From positions 8,499-72,498 of the forward strand of contig CAZVUC010000056.1 in the NCBI GenBank assembly GCA_964630405.1: a stretch of DNA of 64,000 nt, given 5' to 3'. The notes beneath the pieces were generated by a model that saw only the letters and a program-made list of their open reading frames with translations, did no database searches and was not told the DNA's origin. Below, piece after piece: positions 41,003 through 50,846 of this stretch. How positions within the stretch are numbered: position 1 is the first letter of the stretch; every line of letters begins with the position of its first letter. This stretch comes from an uncultured Syntrophobacterales bacterium (GTDB lineage: Bacteria > Desulfobacterota > Binatia > UBA9968 > JAJDTQ01). The position numbers and the translations under genes are program-made.

Positions 41003-42082
41003 TCAAGGAGAAGACACGTCGGTCCGCCGCGTCATGAAGAGATCCGCCGGCAGCCGCGTGCCGAGTTTTCGTTTCCGGGCCTCCTGCAGCACCAGGTGGC
41101 CGATGGCGGCGAACTGGACGCCCATGCCGCAGTTGTTGTTGTGGTGGGTGATCTCCGAGGCGGTGGTGCGGCCGGCGATGTTGCCGATGACCAGGTCGCC
41201 CAACTCGTGGATCTGCTCCCAGCCGATAATGCCCTTCCTGATCGGCGACATCAGCTCGGGCTGCTCGTCGATCTCCACCTGCTCCTTGGAGTTCACCACG
41301 ATGAGGTCGCAGTTCTCGATGGCGGCGTCGTCCAGCTCCCGGCGCTTGTCGAACCAGTCCGGGCCGATCATGGAGACGACGTGCGTGCCGGGCTCCAGCA
41401 GGTCGCCGTCGAACACCGGATCGCCGGAGTTGGTGGCGGTGACCACGATGTCCGAATCGTGGACCACCTCCTCGGGGCGCCGGACGGCCCGGGCCTTGAC
41501 GCCGTAGCGCTCGGTCACCTCCCTGGCGAAGCGCTGGCGGTTCTCCTCCCGCAGCGAGAACACCTTGACCTCCCGAATCTTCCGCACCGCGCAAAAGGCC
41601 GACACCTGGCCGTGGGCCTGGGTGCCGCTGCCGAAGATGCCCAGCACCGACGCGTCCTCCCGCGCCAGGTACTTCGCCGCCACCGCGCTGGTGGCCCCGA
41701 CCCGCAGCGCCGACAGGTAGTGGTCGTGGACGATGCCCTTGAGGGCCCGCTCCTTGATGCTGAACAGCATCACGAAGCCGGCGAAGTCGCCGGGGAACTC
41801 CATGCGGCTGGCGCCGTCGACGTTCCGGAAGCGGATCTGGGACGAATCGAGACGCACCGCGGCCGTGTCGAAGGCCGGCACCGCCCCGGGAATGACGTTC
41901 AGCCAGTACCAGGTGCGCTCCAGGCCCTCCTGCGGCATGTGCAGCCGGCGCCGGGGCATACCCTCGGCGATCTTCCGGCCAAGCTCTCCGTACGCCGTCT
42001 CCACCGCCTCCACGATCTCCCCCATGTCGAGGAGACCCTCCATGTCTTCGTTGGTCAGGACCAGCACGTCCTCGTCAGCCAT
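41003..42082 (-). CDS. Ornithine cyclodeaminase/mu-crystallin family (imine reductase-like)
   Basis: ALRVGATSAVAAKYLAR, GIFGSGTQA, DIVVTATNS and GMGVQFAA motifs. Confidence 0.88.
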   Translation of the reverse strand: MADEDVLVLTNEDMEGLLDMGEIVEAVETAYGELGRKIAEGMPRRRLHMPQEGLERTWYWLNVIPGAVPAFDTAAVRLDSSQIRFRNVDGASRMEFPGDFAGFVMLFSIKERALKGIVHDHYLSALRVGATSAVAAKYLAREDASVLGIFGSGTQAHGQVSAFCAVRKIREVKVFSLREENRQRFAREVTERYGVKARAVRRPEEVVHDSDIVVTATNSGDPVFDGDLLEPGTHVVSMIGPDWFDKRRELDDAAIENCDLIVVNSKEQVEIDEQPELMSPIRKGIIGWEQIHELGDLVIGNIAGRTTASEITHHNNNCGMGVQFAAIGHLVLQEARKRKLGTRLPADLFMTRRTDVSSP

Positions 42083-42153
42083 CAAGAACCCCTTGTCTAC
42101 CCGCTCCCCGGAGTTTCCAGCCGCGTATGTCCAGCGTGCACCTCGACGCGACC

Positions 42154-42209: not shown

Positions 42210-44003
42210 ATGTTTCGACTCACGAAATCCGTACTCGTTCTCGCGGCAGCCGCAACGGTTCTGAGTCTGGCGGCCCCCGAAACGCTCTATTCCCGCGACC
42301 TTGAGCTGGTTGACCGGCTGAAGCAGAACGCCGCCGAGTTCCGCTACGAAATCGGCAAGCCTGGGGGAACGCTCACCTACTCGACGATCTCCGGCCCCAA
42401 GACGTTCAATCTGGCCATTTCCACCGAGACGTCATCGAGCGAGATTCTCGCCTACGTGTTCGAAGGGCTGGTCGAGACTTCCTGGCTGACCGCGGAGGTC
42501 GAGCCCAGCCTCGCGGAGCGCTGGGAGTCGTCCGAGGACGGCCTTGTCTGGACGTTTTTCCTCCGCAAGGGCGTGAAGTGGGCCGATGGAGCGCCGTTCT
42601 CCGCGGACGACGTCATCTTCACGTTCTCGAAAATCATCTACAACGACGACATCCCCGCCTCGGCCCGGCCCGGTCTCACCATCCGCTATCACGACGCCGC
42701 GACGCAGACCTGGAAAAAAGGCCAGGTCAAGGCCGAGAAGATCGGCCCGCACACCGTGAGGTTCACCCTGCCGGTGCCGTTCGCGCCCTTCCTCCGGAGC
42801 ATGGAGACCTCCATCTATCCCAGACACATCCTGGAACGGCACGTGGACGACGGCACTTTCACCTCCACCTGGGACGTGGGCACCGAGCCCGGGGACATCA
42901 TCGGCACCGGGCCCTTCACCATTGAACGCTACGACGTGGGGGAGCGCATCGTCCTCAAGCGCAACCCGCGGTACTGGCAACGGGACACGGCCGGAAACCC
43001 CCTGCCCTACCTCGACCGGATCATCTACCTGGTGGTACCCAACCTGGCTACCTCGCTCTTGAAATTCCAGGCTGGTGAGACCGACATACTGAACGTCACC
43101 GGCGAGCACTTCCCGATCCTGAAACCGCAGGAGGCGGCCAAGAAGTTCACTCTGTACAAGAGGGGACCGAACTTCGGGACCACCTTCCTCGCTCTCAACA
43201 TGAACGCCGGCAAGAATCCCAAGAACGATGCGCCCTTCGTCGATCCCGTCAAGCTGGGGTGGTTCCGCACACTAGCCTTCAGGAAGGCCTTGGCCCACAG
43301 CATCGACAAGGACAGCATCATCGACAACGTCATGAACGGCCTCGGCTATCCGCAGTGGGCCGCCGTCAGCCCCGCGGCCGGCGACTTCCACAACCCGAAT
43401 GTGGCCCGTTATCCCTACGACATCGACAAAGCCAACGCCCTGCTCGACGGCTTGGGCTGGTTCGACGGCGACGGCGACGGCGTACGGGAAGACGCCGAAG
43501 GCAACAACATCGTGTTCAACCTTGCGACCAACTCCGGCAACACGGTGCGGGAACGGGTGTGCACGATCATGAAGCAGGACCTGGCCAGAATCGGCATCCG
43601 GGTGAACCTGCGGTTTCTGGAGTTCAACACCCTCGTATCCCAACTCACCAGCACCTACGACTGGGAAGCCATCGTCATCGGCTTCACGGGCGGCGTGGAA
43701 CCCCATCACGGCATCAATTTCTGGCATTCCGGCGAACGGCTTCACCTATGGTTCCCGAACCAGGAGGAACCCGCCACCGAGTGGGAAAGGCGGATCGACG
43801 AGCTCTTCGTGAGCGGCAGCCGCGAGCTGGACCACGAAAAGCGGGTTGCCATCTACCACGAGTTCCAGAAGATCGCGTCCGACAACGTACCCGTGGTCTA
43901 TACCGCCTTGGCCGAACGCATCACGGCCATAGGCAATCGTTTCGCCAATGTCACGCCGACCCTGTTCGGGCTGTTCGATGTACGGCGACTCTACGTGAAG
44001 TGA
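42210..44003 (+). CDS. ABC substrate-binding protein, family 5 (OppA/DppA-like)
   Basis: PKTFN, EGLVE..LAERWE, LRKGVKWADGAPFSADDVIFT, IIGTGPF, FRKALAHSID motifs. Confidence 0.92.
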   Translation: MFRLTKSVLVLAAAATVLSLAAPETLYSRDLELVDRLKQNAAEFRYEIGKPGGTLTYSTISGPKTFNLAISTETSSSEILAYVFEGLVETSWLTAEVEPSLAERWESSEDGLVWTFFLRKGVKWADGAPFSADDVIFTFSKIIYNDDIPASARPGLTIRYHDAATQTWKKGQVKAEKIGPHTVRFTLPVPFAPFLRSMETSIYPRHILERHVDDGTFTSTWDVGTEPGDIIGTGPFTIERYDVGERIVLKRNPRYWQRDTAGNPLPYLDRIIYLVVPNLATSLLKFQAGETDILNVTGEHFPILKPQEAAKKFTLYKRGPNFGTTFLALNMNAGKNPKNDAPFVDPVKLGWFRTLAFRKALAHSIDKDSIIDNVMNGLGYPQWAAVSPAAGDFHNPNVARYPYDIDKANALLDGLGWFDGDGDGVREDAEGNNIVFNLATNSGNTVRERVCTIMKQDLARIGIRVNLRFLEFNTLVSQLTSTYDWEAIVIGFTGGVEPHHGINFWHSGERLHLWFPNQEEPATEWERRIDELFVSGSRELDHEKRVAIYHEFQKIASDNVPVVYTALAERITAIGNRFANVTPTLFGLFDVRRLYVK

Positions 44004-44057: not shown

Positions 44058-45923
44058 ATGACGACCTACATCGTACGGCGGCTGCTGATAACGATTCCGT
44101 CACTCTTCGGCCTGACCTTCGTGATCTTCATGATCATCCAGATCGCCCCGGGGGACTATTTCGACCAGTGGGCGCTCCAGCCCGACCTCGATCAGCGGCA
44201 ACTGCGCCAGTGGAAACGCGAGTTCGGCGCTGACAAGGGCTGGGGCAACCAATACCTGCGGTGGTTGCGCGGCGTGTTGTTCGACGTTCGTTTCGCCCGC
44301 GAGCGCGTTCGCATCGTCGACTTCGAATACTCCGATCTGGCCGCCAACCGTAAAGCCTACAAGATCTCCGGCAACGCCACGCCTATCCTTGTCCCGCAAG
44401 CGGACGGCACATTCGGACTCGGGTTCAACTTCGACGCGGCCGGAGGTGTCGGTGTATTGCGAAAGACGGACAACCCCAACACCGCAGGTCAACGCGCCTG
44501 GAACCATTGGTCGGGGGATGAGTTCCATGCCATCGAAATGGACCTGCGCAATGACCGGGTTCACGGCGCGGACATCTTCCTGCGCATCCAGGACAGGGAC
44601 GGAAAGACGTTCCAGGAACGCCGATCCGTCGCCGCCGACGAACCGGTCTCGGTGGCGCTGACAGACGCCGACTACGCCCGCTTCGGAGTGGACCGGAAGC
44701 GGCTCAAGGGGGTGTTTCTCTTTGCGCGGCAACGCGGCGGAAGACCCGCGGTGATGGAGGTCACCTATCATGCCGGAAAGGCGTTGTTGGCCACGGCGCG
44801 TCACGCCCTCGACCCGACACGGCGCCTGGCCCTCGTCCGCGGTGCGTTCCCACCCGGGCTGGCGGAACCGGGCCGCTGCGACCGCGTGACCTTCAGGATC
44901 ATCCCGGAACCGCCGGTACGCATGACGGCGACCGTGGCCTTCCGGGATGCGGACTCGAACGCCTACACCACCAAGTTGCGCCTGGCCGGCAACGTCACGA
45001 CGTCGTTGTCGGTCGACCTGGCCGAGCTCCACGCGGCGGGCGTGGACACCGCGCGCATGGGTTCCATCTCGTTCCGCAGCGACGTCCCGGGATCCCTTTT
45101 CGTGGACGAGATCCGGCTCGTGAAGGCCGGCAGCGGCTTCCACATCGGCATGCCCGATTTCGGCAAGTCCATCGCCAACCGCCAGCCCGTGTGGACCACC
45201 ATGTGGCCCTTTCTCAAGAACACCATGCTGCTGAACGTCCTGGCCATTCTCTTCACCTGGCTTCTGTCGCTACCCATCGGGATCTACTCGGCCACGCATC
45301 CCTATTCCTGGAGCGACAAGGCGTTCGGCTTCATGGCTTACATGGGCTTGGCGATTCCCTCTTTCTTCTTCGCGCTGTTGCTGCTCTATGCCGTAACCCT
45401 GACCTACGATTTCAACCCCAACAACCCGTTTTACGAATGGCTTCCCATCGGCGGGCTCACGTCGGCGAACTACCATGAGCTCGATACGTGGGGACGGATG
45501 ATGGACGTGGCCCGTCACCTGGTGCTTCCCGTGATCGTGCTCGGAACCGGCTCCATGGCGGCGCTCGTCCGCGTGCTGCGAGCGGAGTTTCTCGACAAGA
45601 GCCACATGCAGTTCGTCGTCACCGCACGGGCCAAGGGCCTCTCCAACGCCATGGTCAACTACAAGCACATCCTGAGGAACGCCATCACCCCGTTCGTGGC
45701 GGGCTTCGGCTCCCTGCTGCCGACCATCATCGGCGGCTCGGCCCTGGTGGAGATCGTTTTCGGCTACCCCGGTATCGGGCAACTGATGCTTACAGCGGTG
45801 CGTTCCTACGACATCTACGTCGTAATGGCCAGTTCCCTCGCCGGCGGGCTGTTGCTGATCATCGGCAACCTGCTCGCCGACATCCTGCTGGCCTGGGTCG
45901 ACCCGCGGATCAGTTACAGGTAG
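44058..45923 (+). CDS. OppB/DppB-like permease with a ~290-aa insertion of two CBM-like domains
   Basis: YIVRRLL..IFMIIQIAPGD, YLRWL, DFGKS, an EAA loop (FVVTARAKGLS) and VDPRISY. Confidence 0.88.
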   Translation: MTTYIVRRLLITIPSLFGLTFVIFMIIQIAPGDYFDQWALQPDLDQRQLRQWKREFGADKGWGNQYLRWLRGVLFDVRFARERVRIVDFEYSDLAANRKAYKISGNATPILVPQADGTFGLGFNFDAAGGVGVLRKTDNPNTAGQRAWNHWSGDEFHAIEMDLRNDRVHGADIFLRIQDRDGKTFQERRSVAADEPVSVALTDADYARFGVDRKRLKGVFLFARQRGGRPAVMEVTYHAGKALLATARHALDPTRRLALVRGAFPPGLAEPGRCDRVTFRIIPEPPVRMTATVAFRDADSNAYTTKLRLAGNVTTSLSVDLAELHAAGVDTARMGSISFRSDVPGSLFVDEIRLVKAGSGFHIGMPDFGKSIANRQPVWTTMWPFLKNTMLLNVLAILFTWLLSLPIGIYSATHPYSWSDKAFGFMAYMGLAIPSFFFALLLLYAVTLTYDFNPNNPFYEWLPIGGLTSANYHELDTWGRMMDVARHLVLPVIVLGTGSMAALVRVLRAEFLDKSHMQFVVTARAKGLSNAMVNYKHILRNAITPFVAGFGSLLPTIIGGSALVEIVFGYPGIGQLMLTAVRSYDIYVVMASSLAGGLLLIIGNLLADILLAWVDPRISYR

Positions 45924-45928
45924 TTTCC

Positions 45929-47086
45929 ATGCCCCCCGATACGGACAACGGCGGCCGCCAAAAACGCAAGACACCCGGATCCAACTCTCCATTGCGGCGC
46001 GCCGTCTCCCGCCTCCGGCGCAACCGTCTCGCCATGCTTGGATTCTGGATCCTGGTGGTCCTCTACGGCGCAGCCATCTTCGCGGATTTCCTCGCCCCGC
46101 ACCATTACGCCACCAGCGCCCGCAAGAAGGCCTATCATCCGCCCATGGTCACCTGGGTCCATGTCTTGGACGAGGACGGGTTGAGATGGCCCTACATCCG
46201 CAACAGCGCCTTCGAGTTCGACGAGAACCAGCGCAAGGTCTACCGCGAGTTGCCCGGCGCCACCTATCCCATCGGGTTCTTCGTCACCGGAGACCGCTAC
46301 CGTTTCCTGGGACTCATCGAAACCCGGCTGCACCTGTTCGGCTTGCGCGGCGTGGAAGAGTTCACCGACAGCGACCCGAACCGGCCCATGCTCTTCCTGC
46401 TCGGCTCGGACAGTTTCGGCCGCGATGTCCTTTCCCGCCTGTTGTACGGCAGCCGCGTGTCGCTGTCGGTGGGGCTGGTCGGGGTGGCCATCACGTTCGT
46501 CCTGGGCATGCTGATCGGCGGCGCTTCCGGTTATTTCGGAGGCCGTACGGACATGGTGATTCAGCGGCTGTGCGAGATGCTGATGATGATGCCGGGTTTC
46601 TATCTTCTCCTGGCGCTACGTGCGGCGATTCCGGCGGACTGGTCGTCCTTCGAGACTTACCTGGCCATCGTGGTCATACTGAGCTTCATCGGCTGGGCCA
46701 GCCTCGCCCGGATCGTCCGCGGACTCGTGCTCTCCATCAGCGAGATGGACTACGTCGCCAGCGCGCGCGCCATGGGCGTTCCCCATTCACGCATCATCAT
46801 CCGCCACGTGTTGCCCAACACGTTCTCGTACGCCATCGTCGCCGCGACCATGTCCATACCAGGCTACATCCTCGGGGAATCCGGCCTGAGCCTCATCGGC
46901 CTCGGTATCCAGGATCCCGAGGCTTCCTGGGGCAACATGCTGGCCCTGGCCATGGACATCGCGCAGATCCGCTTCCACCCGTGGATCCTGATCCCCGGCG
47001 TCCTGATCTTCATCACCGTCATGGCGTTCAACTACGTCGGTGACGGTCTTCGGGACGCGCTGGATCCCCACGGCGTCCAGCAGTGA
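45929..47086 (+). CDS. OppC/DppC-like permease
   Basis: RLRRNRLAMLG, LLGSDSFGRDVLSRLLYGSRVSL, YVASARAMG and GDGLRDALDP motifs. Confidence 0.92.
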   Translation: MPPDTDNGGRQKRKTPGSNSPLRRAVSRLRRNRLAMLGFWILVVLYGAAIFADFLAPHHYATSARKKAYHPPMVTWVHVLDEDGLRWPYIRNSAFEFDENQRKVYRELPGATYPIGFFVTGDRYRFLGLIETRLHLFGLRGVEEFTDSDPNRPMLFLLGSDSFGRDVLSRLLYGSRVSLSVGLVGVAITFVLGMLIGGASGYFGGRTDMVIQRLCEMLMMMPGFYLLLALRAAIPADWSSFETYLAIVVILSFIGWASLARIVRGLVLSISEMDYVASARAMGVPHSRIIIRHVLPNTFSYAIVAATMSIPGYILGESGLSLIGLGIQDPEASWGNMLALAMDIAQIRFHPWILIPGVLIFITVMAFNYVGDGLRDALDPHGVQQ

Positions 47087-47131: not shown

Positions 47132-48505
47132 CTAACGACGGCCGCGCCGGCGCAGGGCCTGTGGCGTGAACTTCTTTCGTTCCAACGGTATGTCGAACTC
47201 GGCCGCCTCGGACTCATTGGTCAGGCCCTTGGCCAGGTATCGTCCGTTCTGGAGATCGTAGACCGCCAACCCTGTCTGCCACAGCACCGGCACCTGGTAG
47301 TGGTTGACGATCCAGGACTGGCTCACCCGCCAGATCTTGCCGCGGGCGTCGTACTGGTCCACCACCGCGATCTGCCAACTGTCCTCGTCGAGATAGAACG
47401 TGCGACGCGGATAGATGTGGCGGGTGCCCTCCTTCAACGTCGCCTCCACCACCCACACCCGGTGCAGCTCGTAACGCGTGAGGTCCGGGTTGACGTGGCC
47501 GGGCTTCAGGATGTCGTCGTAGCGATAGCGGTCGCTGGCCAGCTTGTAGCTGTTGTAGGGGATGTAGACTTCCCGCTTGCCCAACAGCTTCCAGTCGTAT
47601 CGGTCCGGCGCGCCGTTGTACATGTCCGCCTGATCGTTGGTGCGCTGGCCGTCGGAGCCGGTGCCGGGGTTGTCGTAGCCGACGTTGGCGGCGCGCCGGA
47701 CGCGCCGCTGTCCGGGGTTGTAGATCCAGGCCTTGCGCGGCTCCGCGGCCTGGTTCAGGGTCTCGTGAACGAGAACGAACGTGCCCGCCAGTCTGGCCGG
47801 GGACAGCACTTCCTGCAGGAAATAGGCGAGCTTGTTGTCGATGTTGTCGGTGGTGGCGCCGGGCTGCTGATACCCCCACAGCACCTGCTCCCGGATTTGC
47901 ACCACGACGTAGGCGCCGGCGGCCGTGGGCGCGGCCTGGCCGCTGGTAACGCGCGCGGACTTGCCGCGGTAGCGCAGAAGATGGTTCCAGATGGCTTCAA
48001 GGCCGTTCTTGGGGATCGGAAAAGGCACGCCCTCCGCGGCGTTCACCACGCCGTTGCCGTCCTCGGTGAGCATCGCCGTCGTGGCGTTGGCGATGGTCCG
48101 CTCGTAGATCCGCCGCGGCAACGACGCCGTGCGCCGGGTCTCGTAAACCGGCATCCGGTAGGTCTTGGGATAGCGTTGGATCACCGCGATCTGGCCGGGC
48201 GTGAGGTTGGCCTCGTATTTCCGGAAATTGTCCGCCGTGATGGTGAAGAGCGGCTTGTCGTCCGGGAACGGGTCGACGAGATGCTTGCCGCGCCGGTAGC
48301 CGGCCGGCGGCTCCCTGATGCCGCCTTCCCACGCGGGTATGGTGCCGGATTCGTTGCCCGCGCGGGTGGCTCCCAATGGCGTCAACTCCGCACCCAGTCT
48401 GGCCGCCTCCGCGGCCGTGACCTTCGCCGCCGCCGGCGCCGCCGCGACCAGCGCCAACGCGAGCGCGGCTGCCTGCATGGCCCATCGTACCTTCATGTCA
48501 TCCAT
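47132..48505 (-). CDS. DUF1329-family periplasmic protein
   Basis: Signal peptide, LTPLGATRAGN..GTIPAWEGG, AWIYNPGQRRVRRA, YDWKLLGKRE.YIPYN, RYELHRVWVVEA. Confidence 0.88.
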   Translation of the reverse strand: MDDMKVRWAMQAAALALALVAAAPAAAKVTAAEAARLGAELTPLGATRAGNESGTIPAWEGGIREPPAGYRRGKHLVDPFPDDKPLFTITADNFRKYEANLTPGQIAVIQRYPKTYRMPVYETRRTASLPRRIYERTIANATTAMLTEDGNGVVNAAEGVPFPIPKNGLEAIWNHLLRYRGKSARVTSGQAAPTAAGAYVVVQIREQVLWGYQQPGATTDNIDNKLAYFLQEVLSPARLAGTFVLVHETLNQAAEPRKAWIYNPGQRRVRRAANVGYDNPGTGSDGQRTNDQADMYNGAPDRYDWKLLGKREVYIPYNSYKLASDRYRYDDILKPGHVNPDLTRYELHRVWVVEATLKEGTRHIYPRRTFYLDEDSWQIAVVDQYDARGKIWRVSQSWIVNHYQVPVLWQTGLAVYDLQNGRYLAKGLTNESEAAEFDIPLERKKFTPQALRRRGRR

Positions 48506-48537
48506 CCCTCGATAGTCTTTCCAAGATGCTTGCGACC

Positions 48538-50508
48538 CTAGAAGGAATAGCTTGCCGTAAGCGACACGAAGTCGCGATCGCCCAGCAGGTTGTGCGCGCC
48601 TCCGCCAAAGAAGTTGGTATACGAGAGCTGGGCGCGCCACGACACGAGGTAGCTCGCGCCCAACGACAGCGTCACCGTCTTGCGTCCCTCTATGAAGTTG
48701 CTGATGGGAGTGGGCGCCGTACCGCTGACGTCGTGGGCAAGGGCGATCCGAGGGGTGAGACTGACCGGGCCCAGCGCGTTGCTGTAGGTCGCTTGCATCA
48801 CCGCCCGGTAACCCCAGGAGAACGCATCGGCGAAGCCGCTCACCTGGGTCTTCGGCTGTATGTTCCGCGTAGTAAAAAGTTCGGTGCCGCTGGTGTACGT
48901 GGCCGGACCGTCGTAGCGGAGCACCGACTTGTCCTCCATGCCCCTTACCTGGGTAAAGCCGGCCTCAGCCAGCACCAGCACATCGCCTGCCCCCAACATG
49001 GGGCCCAACGCCTTCGTGACCGCGAGGGAACCCTGGACCACGTCCTTGCGGCGGAAGCCCGTAACCTCTTCCCCTGGTTCCCGCGCGCCGGTCTGGCTCT
49101 CGCCGAACAACCTGCCGAGACCGGCCAGACCCGTGAGCAACCGCTTGCGGGGATGCTGCGGCGGCAGGGCCGCCGCCTGAGCCGCGAGCTTCCGCAGCGG
49201 CGAATAGGCGGAAAAGAGAAGCTCTACGTTGTCGACCTGGAGCGGCTGATTCCGGCGATAGGCGATCTCGCCCTGGACGGTGAAACCGCTGGCCCCCAGC
49301 TCGCCGTTGAAGCTTGCGCCCATGAGGTCGATGTCCTCGGGGAACTCCCGGAAATACCGCACGGAGCCGGCAAAGCCCCCGGGGGCGGTCAGGGCCCGGT
49401 GGTCGCCGGCGATGAACGACACCAGCGGCAGACGGCTGTGGATGCGCGCGTAGTAGAGACCCAACTCGGTGTCGTTCAGCGCCGCGGCGAAATAGCGCAG
49501 GGCGACGCCGAACTGTCCGTCGTGGCCGGCGTCCCGGTCGGCGGCACGCGGCACGCGCGAGCAACGGCCCGCCGGGTTGATCCGGCTCGGGCAGGCGGGG
49601 TCCGGCATGTTGTCCCTGTCGTCACCCCTGTTCCTGTCGCCGAGGCCAAGATGGACGGTGTCCGCCCCCGGCCCCGCGGTGTCGGAGACGGAGAAAAACG
49701 TGCCCTTTGCTTCGATCTCCGAGTTAGCCCAGCGGAATTGGTAAAAACCTTCGAGGAAGAGGCTGTCGCCGATGCCCAGCTTTGCATTGGCGGCAGGGAC
49801 CGGGATGAGGACGTCGCGCAACTCCGCGCCGGCTATCCGCAACCTGGCGACGTCGGCCGGGTTGATGGAGTTGACGCCGCTACGGAGAAAGACGCTCTCG
49901 CCCCAGCTTATGACCTGGTTTCCCAGCCGAATCGAAACCGGCACCGTGCCGGCGTCGACATCGCCCGTGACATAGGCGTCCAGCAGCTTGAAGTCTCGCC
50001 CAGCGTGGCCCTTGGCGGTCGCGGACAGTTCCGTGTGCTCGGTGTCGCCATCGGCGACCACGTGATCGTAGAAATACAGTACCCGCCCGAATAGCCCCAA
50101 CTCCGCGCCCGGACTCTCCAGGTTGAGCTGCAACTCGTGGTTCACCTTGGCACTTAGCGACACGAAGTCGCCCCGGTCGTAGTTGAGATTGCCGTCGTCG
50201 TTGTTGAAGGACAACGCCTTGCCGCCGCTACCCCTGCTGAACAGACGCTCGTCACGCCCCGAGACACGCATGGCCGCACCCGTGGAAATGGTGGTGTCGA
50301 AGTGTCCGGTGATGCCGCTTTCGTTGGCGGGCAACTGCATGGCGGGCGCGGAGCGAGGGGTTGACAAGGCAACCGTCGCCAGCAGACCCGTCAATACGAA
50401 CCCCGCGAAGACGGACCACGGAAACCCGGCATTGCGGCGCGAGTCATCGCGGTATGACGCGATCCCCGACAACATGTGGCGATCGGCTGTCCCCTTCCCA
50501 AAGTCCAT
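48538..50508 (-). CDS. DUF1302-family outer-membrane beta-barrel protein
   Basis: DDGNLNY, LLDAYV, RLGNQVISWGES, DAGHDGQFGVA, GEIAYR and terminal DRDFVSLTASYSF (C-terminal Phe). Confidence 0.88.
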   Translation of the reverse strand: MDFGKGTADRHMLSGIASYRDDSRRNAGFPWSVFAGFVLTGLLATVALSTPRSAPAMQLPANESGITGHFDTTISTGAAMRVSGRDERLFSRGSGGKALSFNNDDGNLNYDRGDFVSLSAKVNHELQLNLESPGAELGLFGRVLYFYDHVVADGDTEHTELSATAKGHAGRDFKLLDAYVTGDVDAGTVPVSIRLGNQVISWGESVFLRSGVNSINPADVARLRIAGAELRDVLIPVPAANAKLGIGDSLFLEGFYQFRWANSEIEAKGTFFSVSDTAGPGADTVHLGLGDRNRGDDRDNMPDPACPSRINPAGRCSRVPRAADRDAGHDGQFGVALRYFAAALNDTELGLYYARIHSRLPLVSFIAGDHRALTAPGGFAGSVRYFREFPEDIDLMGASFNGELGASGFTVQGEIAYRRNQPLQVDNVELLFSAYSPLRKLAAQAAALPPQHPRKRLLTGLAGLGRLFGESQTGAREPGEEVTGFRRKDVVQGSLAVTKALGPMLGAGDVLVLAEAGFTQVRGMEDKSVLRYDGPATYTSGTELFTTRNIQPKTQVSGFADAFSWGYRAVMQATYSNALGPVSLTPRIALAHDVSGTAPTPISNFIEGRKTVTLSLGASYLVSWRAQLSYTNFFGGGAHNLLGDRDFVSLTASYSF

Positions 50509-50525
50509 GACTCGGTCCTCTCCGG

Positions 50526-50846
50526 TTATCCGGGTTCCACCTCGGCCGCCCGCTGCAGCGCCGCATAGAAGTCCCGGTACGGCGTCCCGGCGATCTCCTG
50601 GGGCATCTCCCGGACGATCTCCACGGTATAGTCCCCGCGCAACTCGACGCCCACCACGGTGCGGACCAGGAGCCCGTCGCCCGGGCCGCCGCCCTCGCGG
50701 ACGATGCCCACCACGTGCCTGAGCCCGTACTTGCCCCGGCCCGGCCGCAGGTCCCTCAGGACCATCGGCGTCTCCACGCCGCACCGGACGTCCCCCGGAC
50801 GGCGCACGAAGGTATCCCATACCCGAGCATCACTGCTTGAAGCCAT
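50526..50846 (-). CDS. Phenylphosphate-carboxylase gamma-subunit-like (PpcD/AbcD-like) small protein
   Basis: WDTFV..LRDLRPG..KY..R.V...D.L.VR...G...Y.V.I matches the recalled Phenyl_P_gamma pattern. It overlaps the UbiD stop and has a GGAG RBS. Confidence 0.72.
   Translation of the reverse strand: MASSSDARVWDTFVRRPGDVRCGVETPMVLRDLRPGRGKYGLRHVVGIVREGGGPGDGLLVRTVVGVELRGDYTVEIVREMPQEIAGTPYRDFYAALQRAAEVEPG

Follow-up and report, generated by a model that had tools for sequence, protein, structure and literature searches.

We describe an oligopeptide-type permease with a large extra periplasmic domain, encoded in a 64,000-nucleotide stretch of DNA (the window) from an uncultured Syntrophobacterales bacterium (assembly GCA_964630405.1, contig CAZVUC010000056.1), which is placed within the class Binatia. 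Judged from its sequence, the open reading frame at 44058-45923 encodes a working-looking permease of the OppB/DppB type, belonging to the PepT (Opp/Dpp) family of type I ATP-binding cassette (ABC) importers. Between its first and second transmembrane (TM) helices it carries 291 additional residues that are predicted to form a compact all-beta module resembling a carbohydrate-binding module (CBM), and this module stands directly behind the scoop, the element with which permeases of this family engage their substrate-binding protein (SBP). An OppB with a conserved beta-sandwich beside the scoop is a rare architecture. A full-text literature search returned no description of such an OppB with an insert, and public records name the family 'ABC transporter permease (subunit)' or 'hypothetical protein'. 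We hypothesize, stopping a little short of an even bet, that the module is a docking or gating platform that would act on the docking of the SBP, OppA.

The identity of the permease can be read from its two ends. Pfam assigns residues 1-79 to BPD_transp_1_N (PF19300; 28.4 bits against a cut-off of 23.8) and residues 405-619 to BPD_transp_1 (PF00528; E 1.3e-37, 129.8 bits against a cut-off of 26.4), with nothing significant between residues 79 and 405. Among solved structures it matches E. coli DppB (8z1v_A, E 8e-40), with which residues 2-75 align to DppB 2-75 free of gaps and residues 367-620 align to DppB 77-337 (E 1e-33). Because this alignment stops at residue 75 and resumes at 367, residues 76-366 constitute an insertion, and about 291 residues stand where DppB has a single one. 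The top NCBIfam matches (Opp4B, NikB and DppB) all cover residues 366-620 only and all fall below their cut-offs. The permease is laid out as follows.

44058-45923, forward strand: OppB/DppB-type permease with insertion (P0001), 621 residues.
44079-44147, forward strand: TM helix 1, residues ~8-30, hydropathy peak 2.5, aligned to TM1 of DppB.
44148-44282, forward strand: scoop motif (residues ~32-62) and helix alpha3 (residues ~63-75), both retained in the ungapped alignment to DppB.
44283-45155, forward strand: periplasmic insertion, predicted all-beta module, residues 76-366, the gap in the DppB alignment.
44304-44840, forward strand: first beta-sandwich part of the module, residues 83-261, about 14 strands and two short helices (DSSP of the models).
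44466-44510, forward strand: conserved loop TDNPN...W.HW, residues 137-151, candidate functional site.
44883-45125, forward strand: second, smaller beta part of the module, residues 276-356, six or seven strands and a helix (DSSP of the models).
45156-45920, forward strand: canonical permease core (DFGKS motif, TM2 to TM6), aligned to DppB 77-337.
45615-45680, forward strand: EAA coupling loop TARAKGLS...RNA, residues 520-541.

In E. coli DppB, the scoop (alpha1-loop-alpha2, residues 32-62) reaches into the cleft of DppA once this has docked and closes off the outward-facing cavity; behind the scoop comes a short helix, alpha3 (PMC12136057). By alignment, residues 32-62 of the permease described here appear to be that same scoop, one of the features by which PepT permeases are recognized. 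The scoop/alpha3 segment is the most conserved part of the permease family; LQPDLDQRQLRQWKREFGADK is invariant in 32 aligned sequences, and the segment is 84-100% identical over all 21 related loci that were found in species-representative genomes (15 from Binatia and six from Entotheonellaceae/Tectimicrobiota). Since the scoop is kept, is almost invariant and lies directly before the insert, the module adds to the docking surface rather than taking the place of the scoop. The coupling end of the protein is likewise preserved, with T522, A523, K526 and G527 of the EAA loop invariant even among distant relatives.

The insert begins right after alpha3 (at WLRGVLF/DVRF) and runs up to the DFGKS motif, beyond which lies TM2 (residues ~385-410). 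It contains no hydrophobic segment, its highest Kyte-Doolittle mean over 19 residues being 0.76 as compared with more than 2 in the TM helices, and because it also sits between TM1 and TM2, the whole of it should be periplasmic. The first-pass annotation, made from the letters of the window, had noticed about 290 extra residues between YLRWLRGVLF and DFGKS in a gene that stays in frame with ordinary OppA and OppC neighbours. Both observations hold: the peptides that it quoted are present, and the neighbours are identified by Pfam and run in the same direction. Its coordinates for the insert (44283-45150) are right at the start and 5 nucleotides short at the end. An assembly or frameshift artefact is ruled out, as 21 further genomes, with several closed chromosomes among them, carry the insert in an uninterrupted reading frame, and the insert is under purifying selection. 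That selection is weaker than in the membrane core: against three close relatives, the ratio of nonsynonymous to synonymous substitution rates (dN/dS) is 0.19-0.27 for the insert, 0.013-0.05 for the membrane core and 0-0.07 for the N-terminal segment. The insert is by far the most variable part of the protein, and the family alignment contains many invariant polar residues within it.

What kind of domain is this? Two AlphaFold2 predictions were made, one of the whole protein from 32 homologues and one of the insert by itself from 22 homologues that had been translated from genomic loci. In the full-length model, residues 83-356 reach a predicted local distance difference test score (pLDDT) of about 90 and are all beta save for two or three short helices, with the membrane part at low confidence. 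The best insert-only model (mean pLDDT 85.6, predicted TM-score 0.78) has the same secondary structure as the full-length model; the remaining four insert-only models are weaker (mean pLDDT 58-73). A Foldseek search against the PDB returned jelly-roll beta-sandwiches only. The matches of high probability, given here, all have E-values of 1e-4 to 1e-3 and 6-11% identity, such that the likeness is one of fold only.

2wys and 2w5f: CBM22 of Xyn10B, probability 1.00.
6r3m_A: CBM11, probability 1.00, TM-score 0.61 (normalized to the target), root-mean-square deviation 6.2 Å.
4bq2 to 4bq5: CBM-like domain of a GH50 exo-beta-agarase, probability 0.96-0.99.
CBM16: also among the high-probability matches.
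7zkp_A: NDUFAF1/CIA30, probability 0.94.

Jelly rolls of Cry toxins and viral capsids appear in the same list at low probability. The earlier suggestion of a beta-sandwich of the CBM11/CIA30 type is thus in line with the models, as a statement about fold class: the insert is, on the strength of these predictions, a compact CBM-like jelly-roll module. Membership in a CBM family is another matter. Neither the window protein nor any of 22 family members has a Pfam match above threshold in the insert, and a profile search of PDB sequences with the insert found nothing. Agarase_CBM (PF17992) recurs below threshold in 6 of the 22 members, at protein residues ~145-191, with E-values of 0.008-0.04 for the best matches (0.008 being the lowest) and 14 bits against a cut-off of 26.3. 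In other words, from sequence the insert is not demonstrably a member of any CBM family.

In the models the module appears to comprise two parts of unequal size. The first, about 180 residues long, has the dimensions of a CBM11/CIA30-type jelly roll; the second, of about 80 residues, ends in a conserved PGSLxVDEIRLV strand and is the region best conserved towards more distant groups (groups C and D). With its six or seven strands, the second part is too small to be a complete jelly roll of that type, and the idea of two tandem CBM domains put forward in the first-pass annotation is not supported. The related idea of two similar units survives in one respect, since the predicted order of four strands, a helix and further strands occurs at residues 156-226 and again at 276-341, and fails in the other, as an hhalign comparison of residues 150-265 with 266-362 gave no significant sequence similarity (65 ungapped columns, E 0.08). 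A distant relative, P0077, has a single domain of about 160 residues in which the N-terminal strands and the closing VDxxRLV strand are preserved, as would fit an ancestor with one jelly roll that was enlarged afterwards. Within the first part, the loop at residues 137-151 stands out: the family alignment shows no variation at D138, N139, P140 and W151 and next to none at H150, the pLDDT falls to 50-58 there in both AlphaFold2 models, and the NP[ND]...W core recurs in distant relatives (groups B and D and P0092). Whether the module docks a protein or captures a ligand, this conserved loop would be the best candidate for its functional site.

Permeases with this insert are few and narrowly distributed. 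Among 5.8 billion proteins, a word-indexed search picked out 56 clusters that carry it (51-95% insert identity), almost all of them 621-623 residues long, and an exhaustive phmmer search of 1.84 billion representatives with the insert gave 10 matches, of which about six are genuine relatives; the insertion is thus not the common feature of annotated OppB families that would have told against the first-pass annotation. Three of the phmmer matches, P0061, P0063 and P0064, are repeat proteins and look spurious. Of 21 genomes sampled from the window's genus, 16 have the insert (17 of 22 if the window's own genome is counted); of the 118 other genera sampled from the class none has it, save for one weak partial match. 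Some loci of the Binatia type are deposited as Deltaproteobacteria, Thermodesulfobacteriota or Syntrophobacterales, with insert identities to Binatia of 72-96%; these labels are probably outdated, because the class-level genome search puts close relatives in the window's genus. One metagenomic relative (P0004, from a 16-kb ENA contig) is annotated as one continuous OppB-OppC protein of 1007 residues containing both BPD_transp_1 and OppC_N; this may be a true fusion, or a stop codon may have been overlooked.

A wider clade emerged from a search with the membrane core in which only long proteins were accepted. It contains further OppB homologues of 471-660 residues that have a homologous insert at the identical site. 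In the group typified by Candidatus Entotheonella serta (E. serta), blastp aligns the insert over its full length (E 1e-52 to 1e-58, 33-37% identity); in a group that includes a metagenome-assembled genome (MAG) of Kiritimatiellia, and in a low-GC group, hhalign recovers it with probabilities of 96% (E 1e-9) and 98% (E 7e-14), respectively. One member of the Kiritimatiellia group sits in a full SBP-OppB-OppC-OppD-OppF operon, from which we conclude that the module works inside an otherwise ordinary importer with its own SBP. Members of the low-GC group (P0066, P0078 and P0080; 569-570 residues) have two strongly hydrophobic segments of about 20 residues in the insert, at ~205-260, which may form an extra membrane hairpin inside the periplasmic module. 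The nearest relative that lacks the insert is from Spirochaeta lutea, where a 378-residue OppB lies in the same operon arrangement with a 613-residue SBP and a 464-residue OppC.

These comparisons bear on the least demanding explanation, that the insert is a tolerated passenger, a stable domain kept for folding or stability and with no specific function. It is true that the insert is the fastest-evolving part of the operon and that domain content varies in distant relatives, where P0077 has its single shorter domain and hydrophobic segments replace part of the module in P0066 and P0078. Even so, lineages down to 33-37% identity keep the whole module, its dN/dS is well below 1, and profile comparison shows it to be homologous in groups more remote than these. 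It also retains many invariant polar residues and has been transferred intact between phyla. We consider a passenger very improbable.

What, then, could the module do? We propose that it is an accessory periplasmic platform next to the transporter entrance, which would either touch liganded OppA or close the cavity made by OppA, OppB and OppC, and that the outcome would be a higher affinity or fidelity of OppA docking. A functional parallel, without homology, would be the P2 loop of MalF in the E. coli MalFGK2-E importer, an Ig-like domain of about 180 residues between TM3 and TM4 that binds the substrate-binding protein. The contact between module and OppA is itself part of the proposal. The genes around the permease that enter into the argument are listed here.

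41003-42085, reverse strand: ornithine cyclodeaminase/mu-crystallin (OCD) family gene, divergent from OppA.
42210-44003, forward strand: OppA-like SBP (cluster C, SBP family 5), 597 residues, Pfam SBP_bac_5 (E 1e-86).
45956-47086, forward strand: OppC-like permease, 376 residues from the ATG at 45956, OppC_N at 11-63 and BPD_transp_1 at 184-371.
47132-50820, reverse strand: DUF1329 and DUF1302 genes, convergent on OppABC and directly downstream of it.

OppA has an N-terminal signal peptide with no lipobox cysteine. Across the 21 related loci it shows 73-96% identity, and it invariably lies directly upstream of the permease. Its closest solved relatives bind peptides (B. subtilis AppA, 1xoc, 1e-42; DppA, 2e-39), and further down the list of PDB matches are binders of sugars and metals, including a chitin-oligosaccharide binder (1zty) and an alpha-galactoside binder (6epy). 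The OCD-family gene keeps its divergent position in most Binatia loci and does not do so in Entotheonellaceae; it may hint at an imino-acid or opine-like substrate. Other neighbours are an M20 dipeptidase-like enzyme in Entotheonellaceae and a DAO-family oxidoreductase in E. serta-type loci. The pyridoxal-phosphate enzyme beside an E. serta-type locus is uninformative because it is an ordinary threonine synthase. Conserved neighbours were rejected as a general clue to function, as only OppA-B-C is conserved across clades.

A different and older reading is that the permease bears a capture domain, with the module binding a glycan, a glycopeptide or a component of the host matrix and thereby either concentrating ligand at the entrance or tethering the transporter to a polymer that releases substrate. 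There is something to be said for this. The top structural matches are true CBMs, the repeated sub-threshold hits to Agarase_CBM point the same way, the polar and aromatic DNPN...HW loop could be a binding site, and the more remote PDB relatives of OppA include the two sugar binders named above. Opp-family importers take up oligosaccharides in Thermotoga and in archaea, and the organisms that hold the module appear to be represented by sponge-derived MAGs, from hosts with a glycan-rich matrix. However, no CBM family passes threshold, the best relatives of OppA bind peptides, and the insert is poor in aromatic residues (2 Trp and 5 Tyr in 291). No carbohydrate-active enzyme was found near the module in the loci of Binatia, Entotheonellaceae, the E. 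serta type, group C or P0092, and in none of the lineages examined does a glycoside hydrolase, sulfatase or lyase adjoin it. The jelly-roll fold is, moreover, functionally promiscuous, with CIA30, Cry toxin and viral capsid proteins in the same list of matches. The capture of glycans or glycopeptides that the first-pass annotation had suggested is thus unsupported by the sequence context, and we think it unlikely, if well worth keeping in view.

We prefer the docking platform to lectin-like capture because of the peptide-type relatives of OppA, the nature of the neighbours, the absence of carbohydrate-active enzymes and the paucity of aromatic residues. By much the same token (the kinship of OppA with AppA and DppA, neighbouring enzymes of amino-acid and peptide metabolism, and no carbohydrate-active enzymes), the importer most probably carries peptides or amino-acid derivatives rather than glycans.

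Several points weigh against a docking role. The closest structural matches are carbohydrate-binding modules, which favours ligand binding. Between phyla the insert diverges faster (57% identity) than OppA (73%), unlike what is expected of a tightly co-evolving interface. The AlphaFold2 alignments are shallow (22-32 close relatives), and the five insert-only models vary in mean pLDDT from 58 to 86. Finally, OppC offers no help. Its residues 140-372 align to E. coli OppC 75-300, and its periplasmic loop between TM1 and TM2 is about 65 residues longer, a possible partner surface for the module; this long loop is also found in the nearest insert-free relative and so lends no support. Indeed, a coupling between the long OppC loop and the OppB insert was ruled out, as the OppC of Spirochaeta lutea is longer still. 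OppC proteins of the relatives have 393-464 residues, the Spirochaeta lutea system included, and because the long loop is present in that system it is a trait of a broader subfamily. Public records give the OppC of the window as 385 residues, as compared with 376 from the ATG at 45956.

The downstream genes suggest yet another possibility, in which the module is an envelope spacer or anchor that binds peptidoglycan, an outer-membrane component or a protein and positions the importer under an outer-membrane channel, while taking no direct part in the docking of OppA or the binding of substrate. The Foldseek matches include CIA30/NDUFAF1, an assembly factor that binds protein, and the outer-membrane-associated DUF1329/DUF1302 genes lie directly downstream in about 9 of 15 Binatia loci. 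The same two genes are, however, missing at the loci of Entotheonellaceae and of the remaining groups that were examined, and no peptidoglycan-binding signature is present in the module. The DUF1329/DUF1302 genes were rejected as partners, being variable neighbours, and an anchoring role strikes us as highly unlikely.

If the module serves a functional importer, which ATPases drive that importer? The first-pass annotation had noted that no oppD or oppF is present in the locus, and this is borne out across the window, whose sole ABC ATPase (~23.4-24.2 kb) belongs to another importer. The OppA-OppB-OppC unit is kept as three genes without OppD/F in 21 of 21 related loci, its flanks differing between clades, and at none of them does an OppD/F gene occur in the flanking DNA, about 8 kb each way. 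Because the EAA loop is intact and the unit comes without ATPases, the importer must use OppD/F encoded elsewhere. The genome (93% complete) contains nine OppB-type permeases (as OppB/OppC pairs) and three OppD/F pairs, the latter on contigs C32, C42 and C78; Opp-type permease or ATPase genes occur on contigs C20, C25, C32, C42, C46, C55, C56, C78 and C79, and the pair on C42 has no permease directly adjoining it. In four genomes of the genus that are closed or nearly so, 8-15 OppC genes stand against 8-14 oligo_HPY domains, which at two domains per OppD/F pair makes 4-7 ATPase pairs. Three of these genomes have clearly more permease pairs than ATPase pairs, which means that the excess of permeases is not an assembly gap, and the OppD/F pair nearest to the module lies 60-85 kb away in the closed genomes. 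The simplest reading of these gene counts suggests that several permease pairs share OppD/F ATPases.

The OppABC cassette also has a history of its own. Between Binatia and Entotheonellaceae, identity is 73% for OppA, 84-89% for the N-terminal segment of OppB, 82% for the OppB core and 80% for OppC, and only 55-59% for the insert. In a maximum-likelihood tree of the membrane core, the Binatia proteins are sister to those of small-genome Entotheonellaceae, and the large-genome Entotheonella, a clade that includes a protein of E. serta, lie outside (support 100/100 and 97/87). Because the Binatia are nested in this way within the diversity of Tectimicrobiota, the tree indicates horizontal transfer of the cassette between Tectimicrobiota and Binatia, with the Binatia genus as the probable recipient. 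Entotheonella counts among the classical symbionts of sponges. Among the carriers of the insert are the jk18 MAGs, which come from Ircinia sponges (PMC9531527), and MAGs of both Binatia and Tectomicrobia have been reported from the sponge Petrosia ficiformis (PMC12648040). It is tempting to bring these strands together and to see the module as a lectin-like receptor, borne on the permease, for a sponge glycoconjugate or modified peptide, with OppABC a symbiosis trait exchanged between Tectimicrobiota and Binatia; we hold this to be distinctly unlikely. Were it true, a membrane subunit would contribute to substrate specificity in addition to the soluble SBP. Its distribution over one Binatia genus and Entotheonellaceae, together with a tree that indicates transfer, makes the cassette a candidate for a niche-specific uptake system of sponge microbiomes.

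Recognition of the substrate by type I ABC importers is credited to the soluble binding protein, to which the permease adds only a short scoop. A docking role for the module, if true, would make it the second permease-borne periplasmic docking domain after MalF P2 and the first in the PepT family, and if it were the module that binds ligand, the permease would help to choose the substrate. This small, conserved and well-predicted family with a standard OppA is tractable for structural work. The new elements of the present analysis are the position of the module relative to the scoop, the wider homologous clade, with one member in an OppABCDF operon, the indications that the cassette passed between Tectimicrobiota and Binatia, the contrast in selection between insert and core, and the evidence from genomic context against a glycan role.

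Comparison with known systems brings out both how ordinary and how unusual this importer is. With E. coli DppB and OppB and M. tuberculosis OppB (8z1v, 8z21, 8j5q), the permease shares the membrane core, TM1, the scoop, alpha3, the DFGxS motif and the EAA loop, and its partners are of the same kinds as in E. coli Dpp and Opp and M. tuberculosis Opp, namely a cluster-C SBP and a second permease of the OppC type. The differences are the extra beta-sandwich residues between alpha3 and DFGxS and the location of the ATPase genes outside the operon. MalF P2 is alike in being a folded periplasmic domain built into the permease of a type I ABC importer; the module described here lies between TM1 and TM2, is CBM-like and is larger, at 291 residues, and among the listed Foldseek matches of the insert there is no MalF structure, such that the two would be analogous in proposed function and are not homologous. 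With CBM11, CBM22, the CBM-like domain of GH50 agarases (PF17992) and CIA30 the module has its fold class in common (Foldseek probability 0.9-1.0), whereas it is not attached to a glycoside hydrolase, reaches no family threshold and stands in no carbohydrate context. The nearest kin by architecture are the long homologues of E. serta (PON18172.1, a 'hypothetical protein'), Kiritimatiellia and other MAGs, which have a homologous insert at the same site and the gene order SBP-OppB-OppC. They differ in that the insert is 20-37% identical, that it is shortened or contains hydrophobic segments in some of them, and that some have OppD/F in the operon.

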